From the NCBI GenBank assembly GCA_964510385.1, contig CAZECA010000001.1, positions 17,340 through 81,339 of the forward strand: DNA of 64,000 nucleotides, given 5' to 3'. Below the pieces are notes generated by a model. It was not told the origin of the DNA. It saw only the letters and a list, made by a program, of their open reading frames with translations, and did not search any database. The position numbers were made by a program, and so were the translations under genes. Source of the stretch: an uncultured bacterium (GTDB taxonomy: Bacteria > Fidelibacterota > Marinisomatia > Marinisomatales > TCS55). Of this stretch, positions 1,124 through 63,852 are shown piece after piece (the first letter of the stretch is position 1; every line of letters begins with the position of its first letter).

Positions 1124-3214
1124 GTGAAATTTCCTGTACAGAAACAGAAATTTGAGTTTATGAAAAACGGTCAATTAAAAAACCCGGCCAATTTACTATT
1201 TGTACTACTGATAATTTTAATAAGTACTGATATTAAAGCAATGAATATCAGCGGTCCTTTTGATATTAACAAAAATACACTGAATGAAATTCTATTGTTT
1301 GATAAAGAGAAAATTGAATTTTTTGAAATAGGTAATGATGGTTCTCATAAACTCCTTTGGCAATTTAACGCTGATGGGAGTTTGATAAAAGATGCGATGG
1401 TCTATGACCTGGAAGACGATGGCTCCTATGAACTTATTTTATTTACTGACCCCATTCCCGGAAATCGAAAAAAGGGAAATACTTGGATTCAGATCTTTAC
1501 CTGGTCTGGATCTACGTTTGTTGATGCTCCCCTTACTTTGGATAATGGCGACCTGTACCATGTAAACAATGGCGACGTAGATTCCTTTTCCGGGATTCTA
1601 TCTGCTGCAGTTGGCACACCATTTCGGGCTGCAGTTTTACTACAAACCCACCTTGCAGGTGACTCACTGGAGGGCATCACAGTTCATATCGAACTTCCTG
1701 ATCAATTGCAAAATGGATACGGACCTGTGTTTGCTAATTTTATTAATGTTTCTGGTGAGCCGCATTTAACGATTTTCAGTCCGGAAAACGACCAACTCAA
1801 AGCGGTAGTTTTCGGAGCACAGAAGGAACTAGCGCTGTTAGATGAAAAAATCTTTCCTTTAGATGGCGCCAAGCATCTGATAGGATCTGCGGTACAAAAA
1901 ACAGATTTGAATAATGATAACATTGAAGAACTGCATCTCCCTTTTTTCAGCGGAGAAGTAAAAACATTGTCATTTATTGATAGCACCCTGACCCTCACTG
2001 AAAGCGTTATTAATGATTTATCTATCTTTGTTGTTCCTGACACGGCTACAGAAATCACGATCAATGCATTGGTAGATGCTAGAATAGCTGCTGGATTGTA
2101 TGACGTTGAGCACGAGACTGCATTGGAAATTATACCAGATGATACACTTCTACTCGGAGATACATTAATTTTTCAAGCCGCCATGGATACTACTTCTGGT
2201 TTTTATAGTTTTCATTGGCTTTCTCCACCGCCAGACAGCGCGAATTTTGATCCAAGCACCGGCCTGATAACATGGATGCCGCGGAGGAAAGACTTGGGAT
2301 TTTATGAATTTAAATTTTTTGCTGAACAGAGGTTAAAAGAGGAACTGGTTTCTGATGTGGATGAACTTGGGGACAGGCATCGAATTATACCGGTAATTGA
2401 AGAAGAGGAGAGGTCTTTTGTGGTCATAGTCATGGACACGATATCTCCGCCAATCATTTATGTTTCCCCTCCCTACGAACCCTATTTAGTATCCGCTCAC
2501 ACTCTTTCAAAAGAGAAAGGCAAGGATCGATTTATATTTGATGGAGAACCATCATTTCATATGACAGTAGATGCGCTTCCCATTCCTAAATATCCTTCCA
2601 CATCTCATTCTATGGCTATCAATCTTGGTTATGTGGATTCTGATAAATTTGCAAAATTTTCTTATGTCTCGAAACCTGACAGCGGTACAGTACTCTCCAC
2701 AATGACTCTGACACATAACCTGGCTATCAATCAATTTATTGCATCCGTAGAACCATACTTAGATTCCACATCTGCAGAACTAAACCCCTCAAATTGGCGC
2801 AATGAACTGGCCCACTATCCATCCTATAAATTTAATGGATTCCCCGAGTCCCTGCGATTAGGGGAAGATGAAAGCGGTATTACATTGTTTCAAAGTCAAG
2901 AAGTGCTGAAAACCAAAAAGAATTCATATATTTCGGTACAGACACCATTATCTGATAACAGGCACATGATATCTATTGCAGGAAAAGCTATTGACTTATG
3001 GAATATGACAGGAGTCGTAATGGTGGATAGTGCAGGGAATAAATCTGTGACCACGACAATTACATTTTCTGGAGATTTAGATATCTATGATATAAAAAGT
3101 GAAATGTTTACTGATGCAGAACTAGCAGAACGCATGAAAGAACTTCAGCATAAACGTTTGGAATTTTTGGGCGTTGACAGTGTTGCAGTGGGCTCCGATA
3201 GGGGCATGGAATGA
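1124..3214 (+). CDS. Secreted protein with FG-GAP-like Ca-binding motif and putative Ig (He_PIG/cadherin-like) domain
   Basis: 696 aa; hydrophobic signal (NLLFVLLIILISTDIKA); DLEDDGSYE and DLNNDNIEE motifs; Ig-like PPPDSANFDPSTGLITWMP. Start could be ATG 1160. Confidence 0.6.
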   Translation: MKFPVQKQKFEFMKNGQLKNPANLLFVLLIILISTDIKAMNISGPFDINKNTLNEILLFDKEKIEFFEIGNDGSHKLLWQFNADGSLIKDAMVYDLEDDGSYELILFTDPIPGNRKKGNTWIQIFTWSGSTFVDAPLTLDNGDLYHVNNGDVDSFSGILSAAVGTPFRAAVLLQTHLAGDSLEGITVHIELPDQLQNGYGPVFANFINVSGEPHLTIFSPENDQLKAVVFGAQKELALLDEKIFPLDGAKHLIGSAVQKTDLNNDNIEELHLPFFSGEVKTLSFIDSTLTLTESVINDLSIFVVPDTATEITINALVDARIAAGLYDVEHETALEIIPDDTLLLGDTLIFQAAMDTTSGFYSFHWLSPPPDSANFDPSTGLITWMPRRKDLGFYEFKFFAEQRLKEELVSDVDELGDRHRIIPVIEEEERSFVVIVMDTISPPIIYVSPPYEPYLVSAHTLSKEKGKDRFIFDGEPSFHMTVDALPIPKYPSTSHSMAINLGYVDSDKFAKFSYVSKPDSGTVLSTMTLTHNLAINQFIASVEPYLDSTSAELNPSNWRNELAHYPSYKFNGFPESLRLGEDESGITLFQSQEVLKTKKNSYISVQTPLSDNRHMISIAGKAIDLWNMTGVVMVDSAGNKSVTTTITFSGDLDIYDIKSEMFTDAELAERMKELQHKRLEFLGVDSVAVGSDRGME

Positions 3215-6200
3215 TGCGCCACTCTATTTTCATTCTGGGACTTGTATCCAGTGTTGTCTTTGGGAAAGATCTCCAGGTAATTCACATGGAAGGAACCTAC
3301 GACCTCGATAATGACGGGCTCGTGGAGTTTGCTGCTGTTGAGGTTGGCCGGGACAATGGCCATTCGGTCTCCATGATCCGCTATTATGAGATCGATGGTG
3401 ATGGTTACCAGCAGCTTAATTGGGAGCTGGCGGCTCCAGATGGATTATTAGGTAATTTTGTAAATTTGAAACTGGGTGACCTGGACGGGAATGGAGAGCC
3501 GGAGCTGGTTACCGTTATGAATCTCACAGATGAAAATGAAGAACGTATCCTACATCCGATTGTTTACTATTATCCATGGGATGGTGAAGGTTTTAGCGAG
3601 ACCCCTGCCAGCACATTGAACCTGTCTGAGCGAAATACATTTTTACGTTGCCACAACTTTGAATTGATTGATCAGGACGGTGATAATGATCAGGAGCTGG
3701 TGGTCTCTCTTGGTAGCCCTGTACGAGGTCTGGCCATTGTAGATGTTAATGAAAGTGGAGAGCTGGAGATAACATCAAAACTTGAGCCAGAGTCCATGCG
3801 CTTCGGATCTGGCTTTGTTTATGCGGGTGCCGTTGACTGGGATATGGATGGTCTAGATGATATCATCAGTTTCAGCCCCGAAGGTAATGTGCTGAAAGCA
3901 CAGCCCTATAGAAATGTGAACGGTGACTATGTGGAAGGAGAAGCTGCCCAGATTACCGTGCCCGGAATGAATGGGTTTATTAACCGATCCGTAGCAGAAA
4001 CAGATTGGGACGCCGATGGCTTTGTAGATGTAATCGCCCCTTTTCAAAGCGGCCACCTCATTGCCCTGACGTTATCAGAGGCTGGAGTAGCCATTGAAAG
4101 TATTCCCAATGAAGCCGGCCCGCTTTCCGATATGCAGATCTCTGATCTGGACCAAGATGGCTATAAGGATCTATTGCTTATATCAGGCGAAATGAATATG
4201 ATGACCGTTTCATTTGGGGCCGAAAGACCGGTAGAAAAAAGTGAAAGCTATTTCACCTTGACGATGGACACTGTGGATATTCAGGTGTTTTCTGCAATAC
4301 CAATCGTATCCAATGGTCAGTACACAGGAACTACCATCGCTGCTGGCTGGGACGGAGTTGAAACCTCAGTTTTTCTTACCGACCTTGGGCTGCCACCACC
4401 AATTAATAAACCAACCGTTAACGATTCGCTGACCGACCCAGTTGACCTTCTAGATATGTTTCCAGAGATCGTTGGTGATGGCCCAATCGACCTGGGGATA
4501 AGACCCATGAAATCTATTGGGCAAGCCTTACCTAAGGGTGTTTTACCAAGGCATGTACTGCCGGTGGATCAATTATTTATTTATTCTATTCCTGAAGATG
4601 AGGCCAACCAGTTCTATAGTTTTCGATGGCTGTTGCCACCACCAAAAGGAATGTTTTTTCATTACGAAACGAGATCAATACAATGGGTTCCCAATGGAGA
4701 ACAGCTTGGGGCATATAAGCTGGCTTACCATGTGGAAATGAAAGTAGGAGAAGATGTGGAGCTTGAATCAGAATCAGAAGACTCTCTGCTGACCTATAAG
4801 GTTATTCCCCATCTGGAAGGCTACGATGAACGGCTCTGGATCTATGTTAATGATACACCGGAATTCATCTCTGAACCGGAAGAAAAAGAATTTGTTGCTA
4901 AGTCACTATTTACTTATACACCCTCTGTGAGTGATTTTAATTCGGATGCGAAGATCCAATTTCTTTTGGAATCGGCCCCAGATGGAATGGAAATGGATTC
5001 CAGTGGCGCATTATACTGGCAGACGGATAGTAGCCATGTGAATATTTATGATGTGCGGATCGTGGCCACGGATGGGTTTGACAGGGCCGCCCAGGAATTC
5101 AAGCTGTTTGCCCGCGCTGGAGTAAAGATCCTATCTGAACCCGATTCTATTATTCGTGTGAATGAATTATTCAAGTATCAGGTAGATGTATGGCGGCCGG
5201 ACCTTGATCAAGAGTTAACATACAAAATGCTGTACCATCCGCAAGGCATGTCTCTTTCAGAAACAGGCATGCTGGAATGGACCCCGGCTGTAACACAGGT
5301 AGATACACAGAATTTTGCTGTGGTAGTAAATCACGGCCTAGCAGCAGACACTCAAGATGTTGTATTGTATGTTAATCACCCCCCGGTTATTGACAGGGCC
5401 CCGCCTTCCATGAATAAAGTAAACCTAGGTTTTGCATGGGATTTTCAGTTGGAAGTATCCGATCCGAATGTGAATAGTGAACTAACTTTTACAGCTGTTG
5501 AAATGCCAGATGGAATGCGCATGGATCCATTTACTGGTAGACTTCGTTGGGAGCCAACCCGAAAAGAAATGGACTTTGGCCATCTAAAGATCGAGATTGA
5601 TGATGGTATTGATGTTCGGACAGTGGAGGCTGATTTCTTTATAAATGCCCCAATAAAACTTGTATCCATTCCGGTCATGAAGGCCTCTGTGGGTGAACAA
5701 TATAAATATAAGATCATGACCACAGATATGAATAGAGGGACCCTGCTTCCATATGGATATATTGTAAAGCTGGACGATATTGAAAAAGCCCGGGTTTATT
5801 CCGTTAATATAGCCGATGATGTTTACCGGGAAAATATTGATCGTTATATCGGAGATTGGAATGCAGCTGAAGTAGTCTACCAGACAGGTCAAGGAGAAAT
5901 AGACTCCGAGGAATTTACCCGACTTAATTTGAAAAGATATGTTCACTCAATTTTCTGGGAGGATGACAGGCTTATGGTTGTCATTGAAGAGAAAGATGAA
6001 CGTTCAGTAAAAATCAAGGATGTACTATGGGAGTTTTTTCAAGGCTCAAAAGGGAAACCTCCCAAGGTCATTGTAGAACGAAGGGGCATCGTCCGCTACA
6101 CCCTGGAAGAATTTCCTGACGGAATGGAGGTTGATGAGTTTACCGGAACATTGTTGTGGACTCCGGGGAAAGATCAATATGATTCGTATCCAATTAAACT

Positions 6201-6876
6201 TGTTGTGTCAGACGGATACACGAAAGATGAACAATCATTTAACCTCTATGTGAACCATCCCGCCACTATTGTTTCTCAGGCACCAAAAGCAGCTTTGGTA
6301 GAAGAAATATATAAATACCAGGTCCAGGTAGAAGATAAAAATGCTGATGCTGAACTCCGTTATGAATTGGCCAAAGGCCCACATGGGATGCAAATGTCAA
6401 ATACAGGTAAGATTGTATGGATTCCCAAAGTTTCCCAGGTGAATAAACATGAGTTTGAAGTCAGAGTATCTGATGGATACCATGAGGATGCGCAGAGAGG
6501 AAAGGTTTTTGTAAACATACCTCCTTCAATTATTTCCAAGCCAAAACCAGTTGGATTAACCGGGTATGAGTATCGTTATAATATGATCGCTGAAGATTTG
6601 AACAATGATCGGGTTACCTTTCGATCTATTCGTCTTCCCAAATATTCATCATTCAATAAAAAGACCGGACTCTTCAAGTGGCGCCCTAGAAACAACCAAA
6701 GGGGGCCTCATGATGTGATAATTACAGCCATTGATGCTCGGGGCGCTACCGCAACGCATCAATTCCAAATACATGTATTTGAAAACCCGGATGCCCGACG
6801 ATTTGTAAATACAGGATGGCCCCTCATGCTCACCTTTGTAGGTGTTATGTTCGCCTGGGGTGTGGCCCAGTTTTAA
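3211..6876 (+). CDS. Large surface protein: FG-GAP/VCBS-like beta-propeller plus tandem putative Ig domains, C-terminal membrane anchor
   Basis: 1221 aa; repeated DxDxDG motifs (DLDNDG, DLDGNG, DQDGDN, DWDMDG, DWDADG, DLDQDG); at least six PxGM...G.L.W.P Ig repeats; hydrophobic C-terminus WPLMLTFVGVMFAWGVAQF; ATGA overlap with the upstream gene. Confidence 0.8.
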   Translation: MMRHSIFILGLVSSVVFGKDLQVIHMEGTYDLDNDGLVEFAAVEVGRDNGHSVSMIRYYEIDGDGYQQLNWELAAPDGLLGNFVNLKLGDLDGNGEPELVTVMNLTDENEERILHPIVYYYPWDGEGFSETPASTLNLSERNTFLRCHNFELIDQDGDNDQELVVSLGSPVRGLAIVDVNESGELEITSKLEPESMRFGSGFVYAGAVDWDMDGLDDIISFSPEGNVLKAQPYRNVNGDYVEGEAAQITVPGMNGFINRSVAETDWDADGFVDVIAPFQSGHLIALTLSEAGVAIESIPNEAGPLSDMQISDLDQDGYKDLLLISGEMNMMTVSFGAERPVEKSESYFTLTMDTVDIQVFSAIPIVSNGQYTGTTIAAGWDGVETSVFLTDLGLPPPINKPTVNDSLTDPVDLLDMFPEIVGDGPIDLGIRPMKSIGQALPKGVLPRHVLPVDQLFIYSIPEDEANQFYSFRWLLPPPKGMFFHYETRSIQWVPNGEQLGAYKLAYHVEMKVGEDVELESESEDSLLTYKVIPHLEGYDERLWIYVNDTPEFISEPEEKEFVAKSLFTYTPSVSDFNSDAKIQFLLESAPDGMEMDSSGALYWQTDSSHVNIYDVRIVATDGFDRAAQEFKLFARAGVKILSEPDSIIRVNELFKYQVDVWRPDLDQELTYKMLYHPQGMSLSETGMLEWTPAVTQVDTQNFAVVVNHGLAADTQDVVLYVNHPPVIDRAPPSMNKVNLGFAWDFQLEVSDPNVNSELTFTAVEMPDGMRMDPFTGRLRWEPTRKEMDFGHLKIEIDDGIDVRTVEADFFINAPIKLVSIPVMKASVGEQYKYKIMTTDMNRGTLLPYGYIVKLDDIEKARVYSVNIADDVYRENIDRYIGDWNAAEVVYQTGQGEIDSEEFTRLNLKRYVHSIFWEDDRLMVVIEEKDERSVKIKDVLWEFFQGSKGKPPKVIVERRGIVRYTLEEFPDGMEVDEFTGTLLWTPGKDQYDSYPIKLVVSDGYTKDEQSFNLYVNHPATIVSQAPKAALVEEIYKYQVQVEDKNADAELRYELAKGPHGMQMSNTGKIVWIPKVSQVNKHEFEVRVSDGYHEDAQRGKVFVNIPPSIISKPKPVGLTGYEYRYNMIAEDLNNDRVTFRSIRLPKYSSFNKKTGLFKWRPRNNQRGPHDVIITAIDARGATATHQFQIHVFENPDARRFVNTGWPLMLTFVGVMFAWGVAQF

Positions 6877-7910
6877 GATAAATTAATTAAATGTAATAGA
6901 TCTCCCTTGTCTTTTTGGGATAGTACAATATCCACTTCCACAGCGAATATTGGTAATTTCTTCAGCCCCGTCATTTTGGCTAGATCCTTTTCTGTGGTAA
7001 TAATAGCTTGAGCTTCAGCCGCTAGAAAAACTTCCCGTATTGCTTCCAGATCAGAATCTGAATATTCTGCATGATCATCTTGACGGAAATGATGTACGTA
7101 ATCCAGTTTTGATTCTTCCAATATGATTTCAAAGCTGTCCGGGTCGCCCACGCCGGACACCGCGACCACAGGCCCACTGATTTCATTTAATGGTTTTCGG
7201 GATCCATCCATCCCTAAAAGACCTTTAACCGGCAGTAATTCTGTTTTGAAGGTGTTTGAACATTTATTATACACGGATCGGAACAGTTCATCATCTGGGG
7301 GTGTCAAGTTAGATTTTGTAAAGATAACAGCATCGGCTCGTTTCAAATTGCGAAGAGGCTCACGGAGCAGTCCATATGGCAAGAGTCTTGGTTTGCTATG
7401 GTTGCTGTTGATAAGAACAATATCCACATCACGGTACACACGACGATGTTGAAAGGCATCATCCAAAATGATAACATCGGGATTAAATTCGCTGCAAATG
7501 AATTGCCCTCCTCGATAACGATTTTCATCAACCACTACCGGAATATTTTCAAATTTTTTAGCCACCATATACGGTTCATCACCACTCTCTTCTAAAGATG
7601 TTTTGATTTCTTTTCCATCGCTCACAACCAGTGTGCCCTTGGACTGCCGTTTATAACCCCTACTTAAAACGGCAACAGATCGTTCCTTATTCATAAGAAT
7701 GTTCGTTAATAATATTACGAATGGTGTTTTTCCGGTACCGCCCACTGAAAGATTCCCCACGCTGATAACCCTACAAGGAAGTTTTCTAGAAACAAAGAAT
7801 CCAACATTATAAAAGAAATTCCGCCAAAAAATGAGTAGCCAGTAAAAAAACCCAAGAGGCCAGAGAAAAAGACGATATTTCTTTAATGAAAGGGGATCAA
7901 ATTCCTGCAC
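6873..7910 (-). CDS. lpxK: Tetraacyldisaccharide 4'-kinase
   Basis: VISVGNLSVGGTGKTP, LSRGY, GDEP, ILDDAFQH, LLPYGLLREP, ITTEKD motifs. Confidence 0.96.
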   Translation of the reverse strand: MQEFDPLSLKKYRLFLWPLGFFYWLLIFWRNFFYNVGFFVSRKLPCRVISVGNLSVGGTGKTPFVILLTNILMNKERSVAVLSRGYKRQSKGTLVVSDGKEIKTSLEESGDEPYMVAKKFENIPVVVDENRYRGGQFICSEFNPDVIILDDAFQHRRVYRDVDIVLINSNHSKPRLLPYGLLREPLRNLKRADAVIFTKSNLTPPDDELFRSVYNKCSNTFKTELLPVKGLLGMDGSRKPLNEISGPVVAVSGVGDPDSFEIILEESKLDYVHHFRQDDHAEYSDSDLEAIREVFLAAEAQAIITTEKDLAKMTGLKKLPIFAVEVDIVLSQKDKGDLLHLINLS

Positions 7911-8544
7911 GTTTCATGGCCTCCTGTTCCAACCTATCCAATTCCGATTTTAATTTTGCCGAGCACTCATCAAAATCATCATCTTTTGTAAAGATCAATG
8001 GTTCTCCGATTAGTAAATGAATATTTCCAAAAGGTTTTGCCACATAGAACGTATCCCAGTTTGTGGCTGCCCAATTAGCAGATACAGCACTCCCAACAGG
8101 CAGAATTGCCGCCCCTGTTCTCATGGCAGATTTGACAGCTCCCGCCTTTAATTCTTTAGCGGGGCCTTTGGGCCCATCGGGAGTAATAAATACCAAGGCA
8201 CCATTTTCATTATCTAAAGTATTTACGATCTGTTTATACGCTTCCCGTCCACCTTCCGTACTGGAACCCCGGATGGTTCTGTATCCCAGTTTTACCGCAA
8301 TACGGGAAATGATCTCTGCATCGCCATGTGTACCTGCCACGCCATAGGGTTGTTTATCCGCCACATACATATAGCCAGGCAATAGGTTCCCATGCCAAAT
8401 GGCAAAAATGATAGAACGACCTTCAGTGCGCAATTTTTCAATCTGGCCATCTCCTTCAATATACCAGCGGTTGCTCCCGTAAAGAAATTTCAAGACCCAC
8501 TTCCCGAAGAATACGCCCAGAAAAAATAAGATCTTTTTTTTCAT
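7897..8544 (-). CDS. DUF374 / lysophospholipid acyltransferase family protein
   Basis: 215 aa; FAIWHG, IRGSST.GG and ITPDGPKGP motifs; lies between lpxB and lpxK. Confidence 0.85.
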   Translation of the reverse strand: MKKKILFFLGVFFGKWVLKFLYGSNRWYIEGDGQIEKLRTEGRSIIFAIWHGNLLPGYMYVADKQPYGVAGTHGDAEIISRIAVKLGYRTIRGSSTEGGREAYKQIVNTLDNENGALVFITPDGPKGPAKELKAGAVKSAMRTGAAILPVGSAVSANWAATNWDTFYVAKPFGNIHLLIGEPLIFTKDDDFDECSAKLKSELDRLEQEAMKRAGI

Positions 8545-9695
8545 ATTTTTATCCGAGATAAAATCGCTTCTGCAGCACGTTCATATGCGCCGGGGATACC
8601 CAGGGTACGTCTCACTTCTTCGTATCCCAGGAGCATTGTTTTTCGTTTTGGGGTATCATTTAACAATGGTTGAATTGCCTGTGAAAGGTTTTCAGGTGTC
8701 ATCTCACTTTGTAAAAATTCAGGTACTACTTTTTTGCCTGCTATGAGGTTAGTCATGGCCGCATACGGAACCTGAGACAAATTTTTTGCCAAGAGCCAAC
8801 TGCCGGCTGACAACTTATAGCTGACCACAGCGGGGATATCGTGCACAGCAGATTGAAGCGTTGCTGTTCCTGAAGATGTTAAAACAGCTGTTCCATATTC
8901 CAAACAAAGGCTGGTGTCCTTTTCTTCCGTAGACCAATGTGATGGAATATTCCCCAGAACCACTTGTGGAGCCTTACCGATGATGACCTGCATTTGGCCA
9001 TCTAATAATGAAACAGCTTTCTTAAAAACAGGTAAATGATTGTCCACCTCCTGCTGTCGACTACCAGGGAAAAGGACCAGTAACGGCTTATTTTGGTCTA
9101 ATTTGTGCTTGAGGAAAAAATCAGCTTTTGTTTGAGTTGGTTGATAGAGTTCAGTAAAAGGGTGACCTACAAAATTAGTATTTACTCCGCGCTCCTCAAA
9201 CCAGGGCTGCTCAAATGGGAAAATACACAATGCCTGATCCACACAGCGTTGAATGATCTTTACACGCTTTTCTTTCCAGGCCCAGATCTGGGGAAGAATG
9301 AAATAAGTGATGGGGATTCCCAGGGGGTGAATATTTTTTGCAAGCCGCAAGTTGAAGCCGGGGTAATCAATAAGAATAAGTCTGATCGGGCGAGCTTCCC
9401 GAATCTTTCCCAGGGTCTGTCCCATAACATTCATCATATAGGGCAGATGTCTCACCACCTCCGTAAAACCTATTATTGCTAGATCATTTACATGTTCCAT
9501 GATCTCTAATCCAGCGGACTTCATTTTATTTCCCCCGTGACCAATAAAGGTAGACTCCGGGCATTTAATAGTGATCTGTTCCATGAGTTTCGCACCGTGG
9601 ATATCGCCTGACTCTTCACCTGCAACAATGAAAAACAATGGATGTTGATTTAAGGTCATGGGGATTTGCAACACATGATCACAGAATTCATTCAA
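8541..9695 (-). CDS. lpxB: Lipid-A-disaccharide synthase
   Basis: IVAGEESGDIHG, IDYPGFNLRL, PQIWAW, IFPFE, FVGHP, FPGSRQQE, SGTATL motifs. Confidence 0.96.
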   Translation of the reverse strand: MNEFCDHVLQIPMTLNQHPLFFIVAGEESGDIHGAKLMEQITIKCPESTFIGHGGNKMKSAGLEIMEHVNDLAIIGFTEVVRHLPYMMNVMGQTLGKIREARPIRLILIDYPGFNLRLAKNIHPLGIPITYFILPQIWAWKEKRVKIIQRCVDQALCIFPFEQPWFEERGVNTNFVGHPFTELYQPTQTKADFFLKHKLDQNKPLLVLFPGSRQQEVDNHLPVFKKAVSLLDGQMQVIIGKAPQVVLGNIPSHWSTEEKDTSLCLEYGTAVLTSSGTATLQSAVHDIPAVVSYKLSAGSWLLAKNLSQVPYAAMTNLIAGKKVVPEFLQSEMTPENLSQAIQPLLNDTPKRKTMLLGYEEVRRTLGIPGAYERAAEAILSRIKI

Positions 9696-9701
9696 TAAGG
9701 A

Positions 9702-10277
9702 TCAGGCAAATTGCTGACGGATTACAACTAAAAGTAATATGAGGAAAATATTCTGTAAAGTGCGTTTTTCTGTTTTCAGAGTTTTTATGAAGGTTATGGG
9801 TTGTCTGTGATCGTTGTTTGGCCAAGGCGATATCCTGGGAACTAGGCGTGGAACATTTTGTTGATATAATAAATATTCATCCCCAAATAAACCAATTAGG
9901 GTTTCTTCTTCAAGAGAAATGATAAGTGCATATTGTGTGAGGAAAAAGATCCATGTAACACCTAACATAATCCAAATATTTGGTGAGCCTGCAATGAGGA
10001 CAGCTCCAGAAAAAACGAATAGATTACCAATGTATAAAGGGTTACGCACGTGTGCAAAAGGGCCAGATGAACACAGTTTTGGAGCCCCAACTTTTGTGGT
10101 CCGTGTGACCCCTCCTGCATAGCTAACTGCCCAAAAACGGATTGTTTCGCCTAGAAATAAACATACCAAGCCATACCAAAAGTGTGGCAGAATAGGCATG
10201 GAGAAATAAATGATCATTAACGCTAAAGGAACCGGCGTATAGCTGCGGTTCTTGAAAAAGAAATTCCGAATATCCAT
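9702..10277 (-). CDS. Isoprenylcysteine carboxylmethyltransferase (ICMT/PEMT)-family membrane methyltransferase; candidate LmtA-type lipid A phosphate methyltransferase
   Basis: 191 aa membrane protein with GPFAHVRNPLYIGN and EEETL..LFGDEYLLYQQNVPRLVP motifs; directly upstream of lpxB. Confidence 0.85.
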   Translation of the reverse strand: MDIRNFFFKNRSYTPVPLALMIIYFSMPILPHFWYGLVCLFLGETIRFWAVSYAGGVTRTTKVGAPKLCSSGPFAHVRNPLYIGNLFVFSGAVLIAGSPNIWIMLGVTWIFFLTQYALIISLEEETLIGLFGDEYLLYQQNVPRLVPRISPWPNNDHRQPITFIKTLKTEKRTLQNIFLILLLVVIRQQFA

Positions 10278-11266
10278 TAATGAAGACCTTCCAGGATCAT
10301 TTCGTGGATTTTTGTAGCCACATCCAAGGCTTCCCTGCCGGAACTGCCATCCACGATGGGTGATTCATCACCATTAACAGCAGATATGAAATTGGCCAGT
10401 TCCCTTTCCAGGGCATCAAATTGATTTACATCTGGTTTTTCATAAACAATCTTCTTATGGTTCCCGTATGCATCCAAGGCCGCAGATTCAATGGCATCCG
10501 GATTGTCTTGGTCCTCATCCAGCACACGATAAACCTCTGTAAGCCCCAATAACAAATCAATAGTAGCGTACATCTCTTTCTGGAACACCTTGATCTTGCG
10601 GATCTTGTTACGGGCAATCCTACTGGAGGTAATATTGGCCACAGTTCCATTTTCGAACCGTAGACGGGCATTGGCAATATCCACGGAATCGGATAAGATA
10701 GATACGCCGCTGGCCCGAATATTTTTTACTGGGTATTCTACCAATGACAATATAATATCAATGTCATGTATCATAAGATCAAGCACAACAGGAACATCTG
10801 TGCCCCGCACAGTATAAGGAGCTAACCGCTGAACCTCAATGAATTTTGGGTTCAAGTCCAATTCCCTCAAAGGTATTAGGGCAGGGTTAAGCCGTTCAAT
10901 ATGCCCTACCTGGATGAGAACATTCTGTTCTTTAGCCATATTAATGAGTTCATCCGCTTCAGCAACTGTTTTGGTTATGGGTTTTTCAATAAAGACGTGT
11001 TTCCCGGACGAAATGCATTTTGCAGCTATTTCTGCATGAGTTGGTGTTGGGGTAACTATTGAGAGAGCATCCACGTTTTCTAGCATTTCCTCAAGGGAAT
11101 CAAAATTATTGCATCCGAATTCCTGCGAGACCCCTACTGCCCTATCATCATCGATATCTGTGATACCAGATAAATAAGCATCGGTACGGGTAGCAAGGTG
11201 CTTGACGTGATGGTAGCCCAAGTGGCCAACCCCCACAACACCGATCTTTGGAAAATGATCATCCAT
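10277..11266 (-). CDS. Gfo/Idh/MocA oxidoreductase, GnnA-like (UDP-GlcNAc 3-dehydrogenase candidate)
   Basis: GVVGVGHLG, KHVFIEKP, QVGHIERLNP, DVPVVLDLMIHDID motifs; first gene of the lpxB operon. Confidence 0.85.
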   Translation of the reverse strand: MDDHFPKIGVVGVGHLGYHHVKHLATRTDAYLSGITDIDDDRAVGVSQEFGCNNFDSLEEMLENVDALSIVTPTPTHAEIAAKCISSGKHVFIEKPITKTVAEADELINMAKEQNVLIQVGHIERLNPALIPLRELDLNPKFIEVQRLAPYTVRGTDVPVVLDLMIHDIDIILSLVEYPVKNIRASGVSILSDSVDIANARLRFENGTVANITSSRIARNKIRKIKVFQKEMYATIDLLLGLTEVYRVLDEDQDNPDAIESAALDAYGNHKKIVYEKPDVNQFDALERELANFISAVNGDESPIVDGSSGREALDVATKIHEMILEGLH

Positions 11267-11427
11267 AATAAGATGGGGAAATTACACTTCTACACTATTA
11301 TGATAATAAGTGTTCCCTAAAAAGCTAAATGAGGAATTTTCTTGCATTTCCTTCAGAAAACGTCCAATTTTCAGACATAATCGAGGTAAGTCCATTTACA
11401 TGAAACAAGTAAATAGCCAAAGCTGAC

Positions 11428-12009
11428 ATGGCATCAAACATAAGATCTGGTATTAGTTTTCTGATACCTCTTGGGGCCATTGTTGGTTTCGTGTTATCCA
11501 TTTTAGGTGAGAACTATATATTGGGTATCTTTTTTGCTGTGGCCGGGGTTCTCGTTTGGTTGCTCTATCTTGCGGTCATGGATACAGCTGCTCCAGACAC
11601 CATGGGCAATTTCATCATTCTTTTTGGGGTGTTGCTTGCGTTGGCAGTATTCATGAATTTTGGTTGGGAGCAGAATATCTGGGGAGGAATTGAATTCAAG
11701 GCAGAAGGGTCGGTCATGGCGCTGCTTGTCTTGTTCTTTGGTACTTTGAGTGGTGTTTTATACCGTCAAAGACTCAATACTGAAGGACAACAATTAACGG
11801 TCCGGGAACAGGAATTGGTGGACAGAGCCATCCAAGGCGAAGAGGATACTAGGGTGATTGTTGTGAAACAGGAATCAGACGAGGTGGATGAAGATGAAGA
11901 GGATGAGGATGATTATGATGAATACGATGAATATGATTATTCATATCCCTATTATTTTGATGAGGATGACGAATATGAATACGTTTATGAGGAGAATGAT
12001 GAGGACTGA
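11428..12009 (+). CDS. Hypothetical membrane protein with Asp/Glu/Tyr-rich cytoplasmic tail
   Basis: Four hydrophobic segments, then DEVDEDEEDEDDYDEYDEYDYSYPYYFDEDDEYEYVYEENDED. Confidence 0.75.
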   Translation: MASNIRSGISFLIPLGAIVGFVLSILGENYILGIFFAVAGVLVWLLYLAVMDTAAPDTMGNFIILFGVLLALAVFMNFGWEQNIWGGIEFKAEGSVMALLVLFFGTLSGVLYRQRLNTEGQQLTVREQELVDRAIQGEEDTRVIVVKQESDEVDEDEEDEDDYDEYDEYDYSYPYYFDEDDEYEYVYEENDED

Positions 12010-12039: not shown

Positions 12040-12061
12040 GGGCAGTTTACTGCCCTTTTTT
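12040..12061 (+). terminator. Intrinsic terminator hairpin between convergent genes
   Basis: GGGCAG-TTTA-CTGCCC followed by TTTTTT. Confidence 0.7.
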
Positions 12062-12536
12062 ATTTCCTATCTGTCCCAGTCATAGCTAACACTATATTTG
12101 TGCTGCCGATGAATGCCCTGTGCTGGGCCAAGGTAGCTTTCGTATAATAATAGATAGTCAATATATAAAAAATGTGAAACCACCATTCGCTCACCTTTCC
12201 CAGAAAATAAGCTCCATCTAAAATAACAGCTGCCATAAACAGCATGGTCACCATCATGGTGGGTGGATAAAGAGTTCGCTTGATCCCTAAAATACCTTTA
12301 TAGAATTTGTCCCCGATCTCCGGGTGAGTGTGAGTGTACTCTTTAATATTCACTCCTGTTCCAACAAAAAAGAACATGACGAGCGTTTGAGCGGCAATGA
12401 ATATGATACTCACCAGCAAGTCAAGAGTGATATGATTTGTGGGCCAGATGTTGAAATAGTGGTTCACTCCCACAAAGACAAGCCCAATGCCGGACAGAGT
12501 CACTAGAACGTAGGATGTTATCATAAAGAAAAACAT
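12060..12536 (-). CDS. Hypothetical membrane protein (about 4 TM)
   Basis: 158-aa hydrophobic ORF 8 nt downstream of ychF on the same strand. Confidence 0.7.
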   Translation of the reverse strand: MFFFMITSYVLVTLSGIGLVFVGVNHYFNIWPTNHITLDLLVSIIFIAAQTLVMFFFVGTGVNIKEYTHTHPEIGDKFYKGILGIKRTLYPPTMMVTMLFMAAVILDGAYFLGKVSEWWFHIFYILTIYYYTKATLAQHRAFIGSTNIVLAMTGTDRK

Positions 12537-60127: not shown

Positions 60128-60661
60128 GTGCGTAAACACATAGTTCAAATAATGACCTCTATGATAGTGCTGTCAACAGCATTATGTGCTGAGATCAAGA
60201 TCGGATATGTCCAATCAGACAGAATTCGAGCTGAATATGAAGAATTCCGCGATGCAGAATCGCAGTTACAAATGGAATTTGGTAAAGTTCAATTGGAATA
60301 TCAAAGACAGCTTATGGCTCTTGACAGTCTCAAGAATGCCTATGAAACACAACGTTTGATGAGTTCCCCAGAGTGGCGTCGTGAAAAAGAGCAGGAAATT
60401 ACTACAATGGAACGGAATATTCAGGTATTCCAGGCAGAACAAGTTGGCCCTCAAGGCGTTATTTATCAAAAGCAGGCTCAAATGGAATATGAAATTTTAG
60501 CCAAAGTCAAACGAGCTGTCGATAAAGTCGCTGCAGAAAAAGAATACGATTATATCATGGATGGATCCGTTTCATTACTTTTTGGTAATCCAGCCTATGA
60601 TGTGACGGATGATATCTTGTTCGAACTTCGGAAATACAACCTCTCCGAAAGCGATAAGTAA
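60128..60661 (+). CDS. skp: OmpH/Skp periplasmic chaperone
   Basis: Signal peptide, KIGYV, AVDKVAAEKEYDYIMD, YDVTDDIL; position after bamA. Confidence 0.92.
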   Translation: MRKHIVQIMTSMIVLSTALCAEIKIGYVQSDRIRAEYEEFRDAESQLQMEFGKVQLEYQRQLMALDSLKNAYETQRLMSSPEWRREKEQEITTMERNIQVFQAEQVGPQGVIYQKQAQMEYEILAKVKRAVDKVAAEKEYDYIMDGSVSLLFGNPAYDVTDDILFELRKYNLSESDK

Positions 60662-60668
60662 TTACCTC

Positions 60669-61664
60669 TTGGTAACCTTAAAAGATCTTGCCGCTCTCAC
60701 GGGCGGACAAGCTATTGGCAACCCAGAACTTGAAATTACAGGTGTTTCAGAAATTCAAAATGGATCTCCTACCACCATTACTTTCTTGAGTAATTCAAAA
60801 TATATAAAGTATGTTACTGAAACAGATGCGAGTGCTATTATTGTAGCGGATGAAAGCCAATTATCAGGAAAAGACGGGATAGTAGTTTTAAATCCACAAT
60901 TGGCATTTTCAAAGATATTATCTCATTTTTATTCCCCCCCCGAAAAAGAAAAAGGTATACACCCAACAAGCATGATTTCTGACAAGGCTTCCCTTGGAAA
61001 AAATATTAATATTGGCCCCTATTCGGTTATTGAGGGAAATGTAACAATCGGCGACAATACAACTATTGGTTCCCATGTGATCATCGGTTCTGGATCAACG
61101 GTCGGCTCATTCTGTGAGCTTCATAACAATATCCATATTTATCATGAATGTTCTGTAGGTAATGATTGCGTTGTCTTCAGCGGGACAGTCATTGGATCTG
61201 ATGGCTATGGGTACGTTGAAAGTGAAGGAATCCACCATAAGATTCCCCAAACTGCGGGCGTGAAAATCGGTAATGGAGTTGATCTTGGAGCATGCTGTAC
61301 CATTGATCGCGGAACCATAAGTGATACAGTCATCGGTGACGGAACAAAACTGGATAATCAAGTTCATATTGCTCACAATGTTAAGATTGGGAAAGGATGC
61401 TTGCTTGCTGCTCAGGTTGGGATTGCAGGAAGCGTTGAAATAAAAGATTTTTGTATATTGGCAGGTCACACTGGAGTTGTTCCGCACGTAAAGATAGGCA
61501 GTAAAGCCATATTTGCAGTCAAAAGTGGTGTCACCAAATCGCTTCCAGGTGGAACAGTTTATGCAGGAATGCCAGCCAGAGAGATTAGGGAACAGAATAA
61601 AAAAGATGCCATTCTCGTAGAGATTGAATCTATAAAAAACAAATTGAAAAAATTAGAATTATGA
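60669..61664 (+). CDS. lpxD: UDP-3-O-(3-hydroxyacyl)glucosamine N-acyltransferase
   Basis: ITFLSNSKY, NPQLAF, hexapeptide repeats, IGSDGYGY, TIDRGT, LDNQVHIAHNV. TTG 60669 chosen as start; the ORF-track start 60609 overlaps skp. Confidence 0.93.
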   Translation: MVTLKDLAALTGGQAIGNPELEITGVSEIQNGSPTTITFLSNSKYIKYVTETDASAIIVADESQLSGKDGIVVLNPQLAFSKILSHFYSPPEKEKGIHPTSMISDKASLGKNINIGPYSVIEGNVTIGDNTTIGSHVIIGSGSTVGSFCELHNNIHIYHECSVGNDCVVFSGTVIGSDGYGYVESEGIHHKIPQTAGVKIGNGVDLGACCTIDRGTISDTVIGDGTKLDNQVHIAHNVKIGKGCLLAAQVGIAGSVEIKDFCILAGHTGVVPHVKIGSKAIFAVKSGVTKSLPGGTVYAGMPAREIREQNKKDAILVEIESIKNKLKKLEL

Positions 61665-62614
61665 CCGCAGCCCATCACAGAAGACAACGAACCATCAAAG
61701 AAGAATCTTCTTGTACAGGAGTGGGCTTACATACTGGCGTGGAAAGCACTATCACGTTTAAACCGGCCCCGGAAAATTATGGTATTAGATTCAAACGTAC
61801 AGATATTGAAGGGAGTCCTTCAATTCGTGCAGATATCGATCATGTTGTTGACATATCACGGGGTACAACTATAGAACAGAATGGTGTTCGTATCCATACA
61901 GTAGAACATGCATTAGCAGCTGTTTCAGGATTGAGAATTGACAATGTTCTCATTGAATTGACTAGTAAAGAAACGCCCGTGATGGATGGTAGTGCAAAAG
62001 ATTTTGTGGAAGCACTGAAATTATCAGGTTTAGTGATTCAGGAGGCAAACCGCAAAGTCCTGGCTATTGGAAATGCAGTGACCTATTCAGATACAGTTAA
62101 AGAGATCGATATTCATGTGATCCCCTCAGATAGGTTTCGTGTCACATTTATGGTTGAATACCCCCTTCCACAGCTTGGAACACAGTATGAAGCAATTTAT
62201 AATATGGAAGAAGATTTTGCAAAAGAGGTTGCCCCTGCAAGAACATTTTGTTTTTTAAGTGAAGTAGAAATGCTAAAGCAACAGGGATTAATTAAAGGTG
62301 GCAGCTTGGACAATGCGGTGGTGATTATCGATAAAGAGATCGAAGAAAATGAAATTAATCATTTACGAAATCTCTTTGGGATTGAAGAAACCATCATTAC
62401 AGGTGCAAATGGTATTTTGAATGGTAAGGCTTTACGATATAAAAATGAACCTGTTCGCCATAAGACCCTTGACCTCATTGGCGACCTTGCACTGTTAGGA
62501 GTGCCTATCAAGGGGCATGTAACAGCTGCTCGTAGTGGTCATGCAAGTAATGTAGAGTTTGTTAAAATGATCAGAAAAGAATATTCAGATTACTTTAGCA
62601 AAAATAGTAAATAA
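61661..62614 (+). CDS. lpxC: UDP-3-O-acyl-N-acetylglucosamine deacetylase
   Basis: QRTI, GVGLHTG, HTVEHALAA, PVMDGSA, APARTF, GGSLDNAVVI, EPVRHKTLDLIGDL, GHASN. Confidence 0.96.
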   Translation: MTAAHHRRQRTIKEESSCTGVGLHTGVESTITFKPAPENYGIRFKRTDIEGSPSIRADIDHVVDISRGTTIEQNGVRIHTVEHALAAVSGLRIDNVLIELTSKETPVMDGSAKDFVEALKLSGLVIQEANRKVLAIGNAVTYSDTVKEIDIHVIPSDRFRVTFMVEYPLPQLGTQYEAIYNMEEDFAKEVAPARTFCFLSEVEMLKQQGLIKGGSLDNAVVIIDKEIEENEINHLRNLFGIEETIITGANGILNGKALRYKNEPVRHKTLDLIGDLALLGVPIKGHVTAARSGHASNVEFVKMIRKEYSDYFSKNSK

Positions 62615-62635
62615 TCGATTTATACGGAGAGTAGA

Positions 62636-63076
62636 ATGTTGAATATAGATGAGATCATGAAACTCATTCCGCACAGATATCCTTTTATCCTCATAGACAG
62701 AATAATAGAGATTGAGCAAGAAAAGAGATGTGTTGCCATCAAGAATGTCACCATTAATGAACCCTTTTTTCAAGGACACTTCCCGGGGCAGCCTGTTATG
62801 CCGGGCGTCTTGATCTTAGAGTCCATGGCCCAAGCAGGATCTTTTTTGGTATTGAATTCTATAGAAAATCCTATGTCTAAAAACATGTTCTTTTCAGCGG
62901 TGGAAAAATCAAAATTTCGCAAACCAATAGTCCCGGGTGATCAGATCCGTATTGAAATGGATTTATTAAAACTTCGAATGAATGCGGTCAGACTGGCTGG
63001 TGTAGCAATTATAGATGATAAGGTGGTTGCAGAAGCGATTATAATGGCCAATATTGTCGATCGCGCCGGAGTCTGA
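62636..63076 (+). CDS. fabZ: 3-hydroxyacyl-ACP dehydratase FabZ
   Basis: IPHRYPFILIDRI, KNVTINEPFFQGHFPGQPVMPGVLILESMAQ, FRKPIVPGD. Confidence 0.97.
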   Translation: MLNIDEIMKLIPHRYPFILIDRIIEIEQEKRCVAIKNVTINEPFFQGHFPGQPVMPGVLILESMAQAGSFLVLNSIENPMSKNMFFSAVEKSKFRKPIVPGDQIRIEMDLLKLRMNAVRLAGVAIIDDKVVAEAIIMANIVDRAGV

Positions 63077-63852
63077 TTATTATAGGTAATATTCATTCTA
63101 CAGCTCTAATTAATAAAGGGGCACATCTTGGAGAAGATGTTACTATAGGACCATACAGTGTTATTGAAGATAATGTTGTTATTGGGGATGGAACCAGTAT
63201 TGGCAATTATACTACTATTAAATCCGGAACTACGCTTGGTTCCAATACGCGTATTTTTCACAACTGCTCTATAGGTGAGATCCCTCAGGATATGAAATTT
63301 GGAGGAGAAGAAACCCAAACATTTATAGGTGATAACGTTACAATCCGTGAATGTGTGACGGTTAATCGCGGAACCTCTGCGCGCGGCTCTACAGATATTG
63401 GGAATAATGTTTTACTAATGGCATATACTCATATTGCACATGATTGCGCAGTCGGCAACAATGTGATTATGGCAAACCTGGCTACTTTAGGTGGCCACGT
63501 TGAATTAGGAGATTGGGTCTCCTTAGGAGGAGGCGTTCTTGTTCACCAGTTTTCCAAGGTTGGAACCCATGTGTTCGTTGGCGGAGGGTTTCGAATTGTA
63601 CAGGACGTACCCCCATTTGTTCTTGGAACCGGAGAACCTCTTCAGTATTCAGGGATTAATCAGATTGGAATGCGTCGAAGAGGTTTTGATGCTGAATCAC
63701 GAAAGTTAGTGAAAGAGGCCTATCGACTTTATTTTAGGTCAGAATTAAATCGTAAAGAAGCTTTGGAAAAAATCAGTACTGAATTAAATCAAACAGATGA
63801 AATTAAAATGATTATCGAATTCATTGAATCAAGTGAACGCGGTATCATTTAG
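63073..63852 (+). CDS. lpxA: Acyl-ACP--UDP-N-acetylglucosamine O-acyltransferase (non-canonical start)
   Basis: The frame upstream of ATG 63292 encodes IHSTALINKGAHLGEDVTIGPYSVIE and IGEIPQDMKF; downstream IRECVTVNRGT, HIAHDC, QDVPPF. Only CTG 63073, ATT 63076/63079 or ATA 63082 can supply the start. Confidence 0.92.
   Translation: MIIIGNIHSTALINKGAHLGEDVTIGPYSVIEDNVVIGDGTSIGNYTTIKSGTTLGSNTRIFHNCSIGEIPQDMKFGGEETQTFIGDNVTIRECVTVNRGTSARGSTDIGNNVLLMAYTHIAHDCAVGNNVIMANLATLGGHVELGDWVSLGGGVLVHQFSKVGTHVFVGGGFRIVQDVPPFVLGTGEPLQYSGINQIGMRRRGFDAESRKLVKEAYRLYFRSELNRKEALEKISTELNQTDEIKMIIEFIESSERGII

Follow-up and report, generated by a model that had tools for sequence, protein, structure and literature searches.

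A stretch of 64,000 nucleotides (nt) from contig CAZECA010000001.1 (positions 17,340 to 81,339 of the forward strand; hereafter the window) was analyzed for a run of lipid A genes that includes a small membrane methyltransferase of the ICMT fold. The contig belongs to a metagenome-assembled genome (MAG) of the Marinimicrobia (SAR406, = Neomarinimicrobiota or Fidelibacterota) of 1.62 Mb in 61 contigs, ~90% complete. Five open reading frames (ORFs) on the minus strand encode, 5' to 3', a gnnA-like oxidoreductase, the methyltransferase, LpxB, a DUF374 protein of the LpxJ family and LpxK (Table 1). This compact run had been described in the original prediction and was recovered in full, with each family confirmed by Pfam and NCBIfam. 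The gnnA and methyltransferase genes overlap by 1 nt (TAATG), a 6-nt spacer separates the methyltransferase from lpxB, and overlaps of 4 nt and 14 nt follow at the lpxB/DUF374 and DUF374/lpxK junctions. As the genes overlap or nearly abut, the run from gnnA to lpxK appears to be a single transcription unit. The operon promoter presumably lies in the divergent intergenic region upstream of gnnA; all other gaps in the run are of 14 nt or less. In this region a sigma-70 consensus was looked for and none was convincing, and the matches from promoter and terminator scans stayed within the shuffled-sequence expectation.

The oxidoreductase was compared with all solved structures. The best match was 7bvj/7bvk (208.8 bits, full length; runner-up 82.9 bits), with 36% identity to 7bvj across 315 residues by BLASTP. 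Structure 7bvj is cited as GnnA, and its sequence matches Acidithiobacillus loci at 91–94% identity. In contrast, 3q2k, which we take to be a WlbA-type entry, scored merely 39.6 bits. The GnnA assignment had been made in the original prediction, and the alternative of a WbpB/WlbA grouping is excluded by this difference (209 vs. 40 bits). The top NCBIfam match was the archaeal UDP-N-acetylglucosamine (UDP-GlcNAc) 3-dehydrogenase, at 198 bits and thus under the cut-off of 450. The window protein and GnnA of Acidithiobacillus ferrooxidans (7bvj/7bvk) have the Rossmann GxGxxG, EKP and D-L-M-I-H-D motifs in common, and both are encoded beside lpx genes. The order in proteobacteria (Acidithiobacillus, Geobacter and many gammaproteobacteria) is lpxD-fabZ-lpxA-gnnA-gnnB-lpxB, whereas in the window the slot between gnnA and lpxB is filled by the methyltransferase, with no gnnB alongside. 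In Leptospira, one full-length GnnA ortholog was found in each of four genomes (37–40% identity, 207–228 bits; next match <40 bits), and the lipid A backbone of Leptospira is entirely diamino-glucose (PMC10248169). An even sample of the phylum (81 genomes) was also searched. A single-copy ortholog was present in 72 of the 81 genomes and in 44/44 genera, streamlined 1-Mb genomes included. Together these comparisons are strong support for the oxidoreductase being a GnnA ortholog, a known kind of enzyme.

For the methyltransferase, the best NCBIfam match was TIGR04571 (LmtA, 57.9 bits). LmtA is the Leptospira enzyme that methylates the 1-phosphate of lipid A (PMC4402001). By BLASTP the window protein and Leptospira LmtA were 33% identical over 163 amino acids (aa), and the alignment started at a common N-terminal motif (window, NFFFKNRSYTP; LmtA, NFLFRWRSYIP). 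An alignment was prepared from 24 diverse members of the family of the window protein (the short family, ~190 aa), from about ten phyla, and each member was scanned individually. All 24 matched TIGR04571, with a best E value of 1e-24 for LmtA vs. 2e-12 for ICMT, the second family. When a profile of the short family was run over four Leptospira genomes, LmtA ranked top (87–93 bits, positions 4–188 of 190), and the only other match was a paralog in one of the four genomes (38 bits). The LmtA hidden Markov model (HMM), run on the window genome, returned this ORF alone and no other member of the superfamily, so that the short form is the only form there and the two proteins are reciprocal best hits. 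Of 44 family columns conserved at ≥90%, LmtA has the same residue in 27, among them the N-terminal F-x2-R-x3-P-x-P motif, which is not part of the generic ICMT core. In a maximum-likelihood tree the short family and LmtA grouped together, apart from ten other PEMT/ICMT paralogs of the same genomes (support 98/96). The grouping was repeated with enlarged taxon sampling (Shimodaira-Hasegawa-like approximate likelihood ratio test, SH-aLRT, 96 and 91), where long outgroup branches urge caution.

The two proteins are ICMT/Ste14-type polytopic membrane proteins and share the F-x2-R-S-Y-x-P motif and the R-x-P-x-Y ... E-E motifs that bind S-adenosylmethionine (SAM). In the window protein the SAM motif reads R-N-P-L-Y and E-E-E. 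An AlphaFold (AF2) model built from the family alignment reached a mean confidence (pLDDT) of 88 and a predicted template modeling score (pTM) of 0.84, and its best fold matches were the ICMT structures Ma-ICMT 4a2n (TM 0.57, probability 1.0) and eukaryotic 5vg9. The C-terminal, SAM-binding half aligns with these ICMT proteins at 20–27% identity, whereas the N-terminal conserved motif is not common to them, and a prenylated-protein substrate would not be expected in this bacterium. The gene is under purifying selection, with a ratio of nonsynonymous to synonymous substitution rates of ~0.06–0.08 against close relatives, at which distance synonymous sites were saturated.

Several observations weigh against reading the protein as LmtA itself. 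The score of 57.9 bits is far under the family cut-off of 325, and the LmtA proteins of the four Leptospira genomes, all from non-pathogenic or environmental strains, score 425–468 bits on the same model. An invariant Asn replaces the His of the LmtA R-H-P-x-Y motif. The window protein is shorter (~190 aa vs. 253): ~45 residues at the C-terminus of LmtA are missing, as is a loop between the first helices. In Leptospira, lmtA has an unrelated acyltransferase gene as its neighbor and is not part of an lpx operon, whereas the window gene is embedded in one. Acceptors used by relatives in the ICMT/PEMT superfamily are carboxylates, amines, thiols or phosphates, and the acceptor of the window protein is therefore not readable from homology. 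We also know of no lipid A structure for any carrier of the short family. The LmtA kinship put forward in the original prediction thus stands as the best lead, by the reciprocal best hit, the tree and the kept neighborhood described below, but the protein fails the family cut-off and has a distinct short form. The short family is a large group, sister to LmtA, that has a distinct architecture and keeps a fixed position in lipopolysaccharide (LPS) operons.

To place the gene in its wider context, 96 species-level loci from about ten phyla were fetched by homology, and neighbors were counted over those loci with the relevant side visible. In Marinimicrobia, lpxB-lpxJ-lpxK lay downstream of the methyltransferase in 47/47 species loci, and gnnA lay upstream, at the head of the run, in 43/43. 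Mean identity to the window across Marinimicrobia was 64% for the methyltransferase, 58% for LpxB, 55% for LpxJ and 50% for LpxK; the methyltransferase equals GnnA in conservation and exceeds the downstream enzymes. The remaining loci came from Calditrichota, Ignavibacteriota, Chlorobiaceae-labelled MAGs, Bacteroidota MAGs, KSB1, Delongbacteria, Kryptonia, Gemmatimonadota, Latescibacterota and Poribacteria. In these phyla lpxB was directly downstream in 25 of 45 loci, gnnA was upstream in 19 of 48, and one or the other was adjacent in 39 of 49. Poribacteria contributed eight of the ten loci with neither adjacent. In the sole one of these eight to be annotated (L092, 3225-6555, plus strand), the methyltransferase follows lptF-lptG, the LPS export permeases. 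Three kinds of LPS gene (gnnA, lpxB-lpxK and lptFG) are therefore recurrent neighbors of the methyltransferase. A different arrangement was seen at locus L035 (4977-7696, plus strand; 4-Mb MAG 'bin522'), where gnnA and the methyltransferase overlap and are followed by a class-V aminotransferase gene (PF00266) in place of lpxB, with a DUF374 gene 3 kb upstream on the opposite strand. Proteins that fuse the methyltransferase to LpxB were not found at E ≤ 1e-5, using a concatenated query of which only the methyltransferase part was scored; the search relies on 5-residue words in common, and distant fusions may have been missed.

The neighborhood bears directly on the substrate. If the enzyme modified a non-LPS membrane lipid (by N-methylation of phosphatidylethanolamine, for instance, or by methylation of a polyprenyl phosphate), its place in the operon would reflect only envelope co-regulation. 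The Pfam scores (39 bits for PEMT, 25 bits for ICMT) are in line with this, as is the fact that Leptospira lmtA itself is not linked to an operon. The PEMT match is at superfamily level only, though, the curated LmtA model scores higher, and recurrence of the gene beside gnnA, lpxB-lpxK and lptFG across about ten phyla would be difficult to account for if LPS were not the substrate. A non-LPS lipid is accordingly judged very unlikely as the substrate, and the target of the enzyme is quite probably lipid A or its core.

Within LPS, the same neighborhood evidence would apply equally to an acceptor other than the 1-phosphate, such as the 4'-phosphate, a carboxylate of 3-deoxy-D-manno-octulosonate (Kdo) or of a uronic acid (the ancestral ICMT chemistry), or an amino group. 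The distinct short subfamily, with its Asn for the LmtA His and without the C-terminal extension and one loop, would fit a change of acceptor, and within the superfamily ICMT methylates carboxylates and MddA thiols. Against this, LmtA is clearly the nearest characterized relative, and the common conserved residues reach beyond the SAM-binding core. For the amino group there is a further test. Of 31 methyltransferase-carrying genomes of other phyla that were searched whole, six had no GnnA ortholog, and three of these six (a Caldithrix, a Delongbacteria and a Bacteroidia) keep the methyltransferase directly before lpxB. The persistence of the gene without GnnA argues against a role tied to the 3-amino group, and N-methylation requiring 2,3-diamino-2,3-dideoxyglucose (GlcN3N) is unlikely. 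Tailoring of lipid A or the Kdo core at any of these other acceptors is considered unlikely overall. The chance that the acceptor is a phosphate is put at about even. In work of Boon Hinckley et al. 2005, as cited in PMC4402001, LmtA of Leptospira is said to be a lipid A Kdo2 1-phosphate O-methyltransferase.

The loci fetched by homology had given the impression that the methyltransferase is universal in Marinimicrobia. This was rejected when the even sample of 81 genomes was searched, with forms called by one search at E ≤ 1e-10. The short form was found in ~25 genomes. Another ~13 gave weak matches (31–38% identity), mostly open frames of ~250 aa. The remaining ~43 had no match, including 1-Mb genomes of a sister family that retain GnnA. 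As it is missing from about half of the phylum, GnnA-keeping 1-Mb relatives included, the short-form gene is regarded as accessory. Five genomes of the same order (G061, G072, G080, G108 and G116; ~1 Mb) kept the GnnA ortholog at 42–46% identity and had a methyltransferase of neither form, which indicates that the methylation step is dispensable.

Four of the weak matches were fetched and proved to be a different, long form of 241–247 aa, which aligned end-to-end with TIGR04571 at 208–271 bits (cut-off 325). This long form is up to 53% identical to Leptospira LmtA, formed a clade with it (SH-aLRT 94), and adjoins the housekeeping genes mutL or miaA and not lpx genes, as Leptospira lmtA also lies outside lpx genes. 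A long LmtA-type protein in other lineages of Marinimicrobia is a new observation. The four genomes that carry it (Table 1) were without the short operon form, and none of the 81 sampled genomes had both forms at E ≤ 1e-10, a count that comes from one search close to its threshold, with no correction for phylogeny. If the two sister forms were functionally equivalent, such a complementary distribution within a phylum would be expected. Across the whole study, the short form occurs in Marinimicrobia, Calditrichota, Ignavibacteriota, KSB1, Gemmatimonadota, Latescibacterota, Poribacteria and others, and the long form in Leptospira and in other Marinimicrobia lineages.

A diamino backbone would also require an aminotransferase to act after GnnA. 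As claimed in the original prediction, no gnnB is visible in the window, which holds no DegT gene. The prediction would have been undermined by the lack of gnnB from the whole genome. One true DegT aminotransferase is in fact present, on contig C21 (Table 1), and it is not orthologous to proteobacterial GnnB. It is flanked by smpB and a small heat-shock gene, with no polysaccharide cluster nearby, and is not adjacent to any lpx gene. Close relatives of the window genome carry the gnnA operon, and four relatives (96–99% complete) likewise have a single DegT; its solitude is therefore not an assembly gap. The nearest solved relatives of this DegT are AHBA (3-amino-5-hydroxybenzoate) synthase (RifK), BtrR, WbpE and QdtB, which we take to be aminotransferases acting on a C3-type keto group. 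It has the fold family (PF01041) of GnnB from Acidithiobacillus and Geobacter, but differs from GnnB in that it belongs to a longer subfamily, scores higher against AHBA synthase/BtrR-type proteins and is unlinked to lpx genes.

Other results speak against this DegT as GnnB. It is only 32–36% identical to the GnnB proteins (364–369 aa) encoded beside gnnA in proteobacteria. In the search of four Leptospira genomes no clear ortholog was found, none standing out among many paralogs. Co-variation of DegT with GnnA had been expected as an argument for the gnnB role and was rejected: across the 31 genomes of other phyla, DegT orthologs do not follow GnnA. They occur in GnnA-less genomes (a Caldithrix, Poribacteria) and are missing from most Ignavibacteriota-type genomes with GnnA, which have a different DegT of ~375–390 aa. 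The genome also encodes RmlD (above cut-off), GalE and an extended short-chain dehydrogenase/reductase (SDR) that fits no curated family. Judged by these genes, the synthesis of other modified sugars is encoded, and other keto-sugar substrates are conceivable for DegT. The lone DegT is the best candidate for the gnnB role, and this assignment is weak.

These data also bear on whether the backbone is ordinary glucosamine, with the GnnA-like enzyme lacking an amination partner or serving another sugar pathway, and with DegT acting on another keto-sugar such as a dTDP-4-keto-6-deoxyhexose. The absence of co-variation between the DegT orthogroup and GnnA, the position of DegT away from lpx genes, and the presence of RmlD and the unassigned extended SDR would all fit. 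This alternative does not readily account for the retention of single-copy GnnA in most of the phylum down to 1-Mb genomes, for the position of gnnA at the head of the lpxB operon in every Marinimicrobia locus with a visible upstream side, or for an enzyme much nearer to GnnA than to WlbA-type proteins; in addition, five related genomes offer no candidate partner besides DegT. A glucosamine backbone is judged distinctly unlikely, and a GlcN3N-containing backbone is probable for this organism. The genes alone suggest that diamino-sugar lipid A could be near-universal in the phylum.

Gene identities, synteny, kinship to GnnA and LmtA, the fold and purifying selection are shown by these data, whereas both substrates, the acceptor group and the part played by DegT are inferred. 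In the favored reading, which is held with modest confidence, the late half of the Raetz pathway is combined with a GnnA-dependent diamino backbone and with a methyltransferase that acts on lipid A, most likely at the 1-phosphate. GnnA would oxidize UDP-GlcNAc at C3, and an aminotransferase (the C21 DegT being the best candidate) would convert the product to UDP-GlcNAc3N. LpxA, LpxC and LpxD would acylate UDP-GlcNAc3N, so that at least some units of the lipid A carry their 3-acyl chains in amide linkage. To our knowledge, there is no sequence signature for an LpxA preference for UDP-GlcNAc3N. LpxB would join both halves, LpxK would phosphorylate the 4' position, and the LpxJ-type enzyme would add a secondary acyl chain. 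The ICMT-fold enzyme would then methylate a lipid A intermediate made by LpxB and LpxK, with SAM as the methyl donor and before export; its active site presumably faces the cytoplasm at the inner membrane, as in ICMT and LmtA. The 1-phosphate would be the likeliest acceptor by analogy with Leptospira LmtA, and one negative charge would be removed. A Leptospira-like, charge-masked lipid A, as proposed in the original prediction, is what this gene set predicts.

No report on the lipid A chemistry of Marinimicrobia, nor on lipid A phosphate methylation outside Leptospira, was found in the literature searched. A broader proposal is put forward tentatively, at somewhat short of an even chance: lipid A phosphate methylation may not be specific to Leptospira, and may instead be carried out by two sister forms in many, mostly uncultured lineages. 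The short form would do so from beside lpxB, lpxK, gnnA or lptFG; within Marinimicrobia the two forms would replace each other against a background of near-universal GnnA, and the lipid A of abundant marine bacteria would be amide-rich and charge-reduced. If the function of the short family is that of LmtA, a modification so far described for Leptospira alone may be widespread among uncultured bacteria of high abundance. The modification would then occur in SAR406, which is among the most abundant deep-ocean lineages, and in several other phyla, and expectations would change for outer-membrane charge, for resistance to cationic peptides and metals, and for innate-immune recognition of environmental LPS.

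The acyltransferase gene between lpxB and lpxK was also assigned. DUF374 has been renamed LpxJ, a late acyltransferase family (PMC6148475), and the window gene thus does not belong to a family of unassigned role. It has the same Pfam DUF374 domain as LpxJ of Helicobacter, Campylobacter and Rickettsia (PMC6148475). The LpxJ homolog of the operon appears ordinary, and its 3' secondary acylation is a prediction.

The remaining pathway genes lpxD, lpxC, fabZ and lpxA lie at 60.6–63.9 kb of the same window (Table 1). Between lpxC and fabZ (61661-63076, plus strand) the reading frame is shared with a TAA in between, and the top NCBIfam match of both is the fused bifunctional LpxC/FabZ (PRK13188). 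An interrupted lpxC-fabZ fusion was rejected, as fabZ is preceded by a ribosome-binding site and begins with an ATG, which makes the two separate genes. By sequence, their arrangement looks like a split version of the fusion. The lpxA frame has no ATG, GTG or TTG until about residue 74 and reads CTG ATT ATT ATA GGT after GGAG; its start is likely non-canonical (ATT, ATA or CTG).

Table 1. Coordinates of lipid A genes and related features. Window positions are those of the 64,000-nt stretch; C6, C17 and C21 are contigs of the same genome (G000).
Feature	Sequence	Coordinates	Strand	Details
gnnA-like UDP-GlcNAc 3-dehydrogenase (P0002)	Window	10277..11266	-	329 aa; Gfo/Idh/MocA, PF01408 108 bits
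LmtA-related short ICMT-fold membrane methyltransferase (P0001)	Window	9702..10277	-	191 aa; PF04191 (PEMT) 39 bits, PF04140 (ICMT) 25 bits
lpxB, lipid A disaccharide synthase	Window	8541..9695	-	384 aa; TTG start; TIGR00215 241 bits (cut-off 190)
DUF374, LpxJ-family late (3' secondary) acyltransferase homolog	Window	7897..8544	-	215 aa; PF04028 65.4 bits (cut-off 26.8)
lpxK, tetraacyldisaccharide 4'-kinase	Window	6873..7910	-	345 aa; TIGR00682 233 bits (cut-off 92)
Divergent intergenic region upstream of gnnA, presumed operon promoter	Window	11267..11427		161 bp
lpxD	Window	60609..61664	+	TIGR01853 329 bits
lpxC (separate from fabZ)	Window	61661..62614	+	TIGR00325 260 bits
fabZ	Window	62636..63076	+	TIGR01750 184 bits; ATG start (62636) after GGAGAG
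lpxA (without canonical start codon)	Window	63073..63852	+	TIGR01852 331 bits
DegT aminotransferase, sole true member in genome	C21	24595-25818		407 aa; PF01041 340 bits
RmlD, GalE, extended SDR (listed jointly)	C6, C6, C17	C6:42490-43335, C6:25312-26292, C17:6997-7968
Long LmtA-type protein, genome G066	L350	7325-8065	-
Long LmtA-type protein, genome G058	L351	7705-8448	+
Long LmtA-type protein, genome G088	L352	7691-8434	+
Long LmtA-type protein, genome G067	L353	2399-3124	-

The genes that border the operon were examined on both sides. Convergent with lpxK, and overlapping it by 4 nt in the stop regions, is a gene for a 1221-aa FG-GAP/He_PIG Ig-domain protein (3211-6876, plus strand), which is a conserved neighbor of the operon in many Marinimicrobia loci (52–86% identity). 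Between the operon and ychF-fabA lie two ORFs without a Pfam or NCBIfam match, of 193 aa (11428-12009, plus strand) and 158 aa (12060-12536, minus strand). The 193-aa ORF is divergent from gnnA and is retained in most Marinimicrobia loci.

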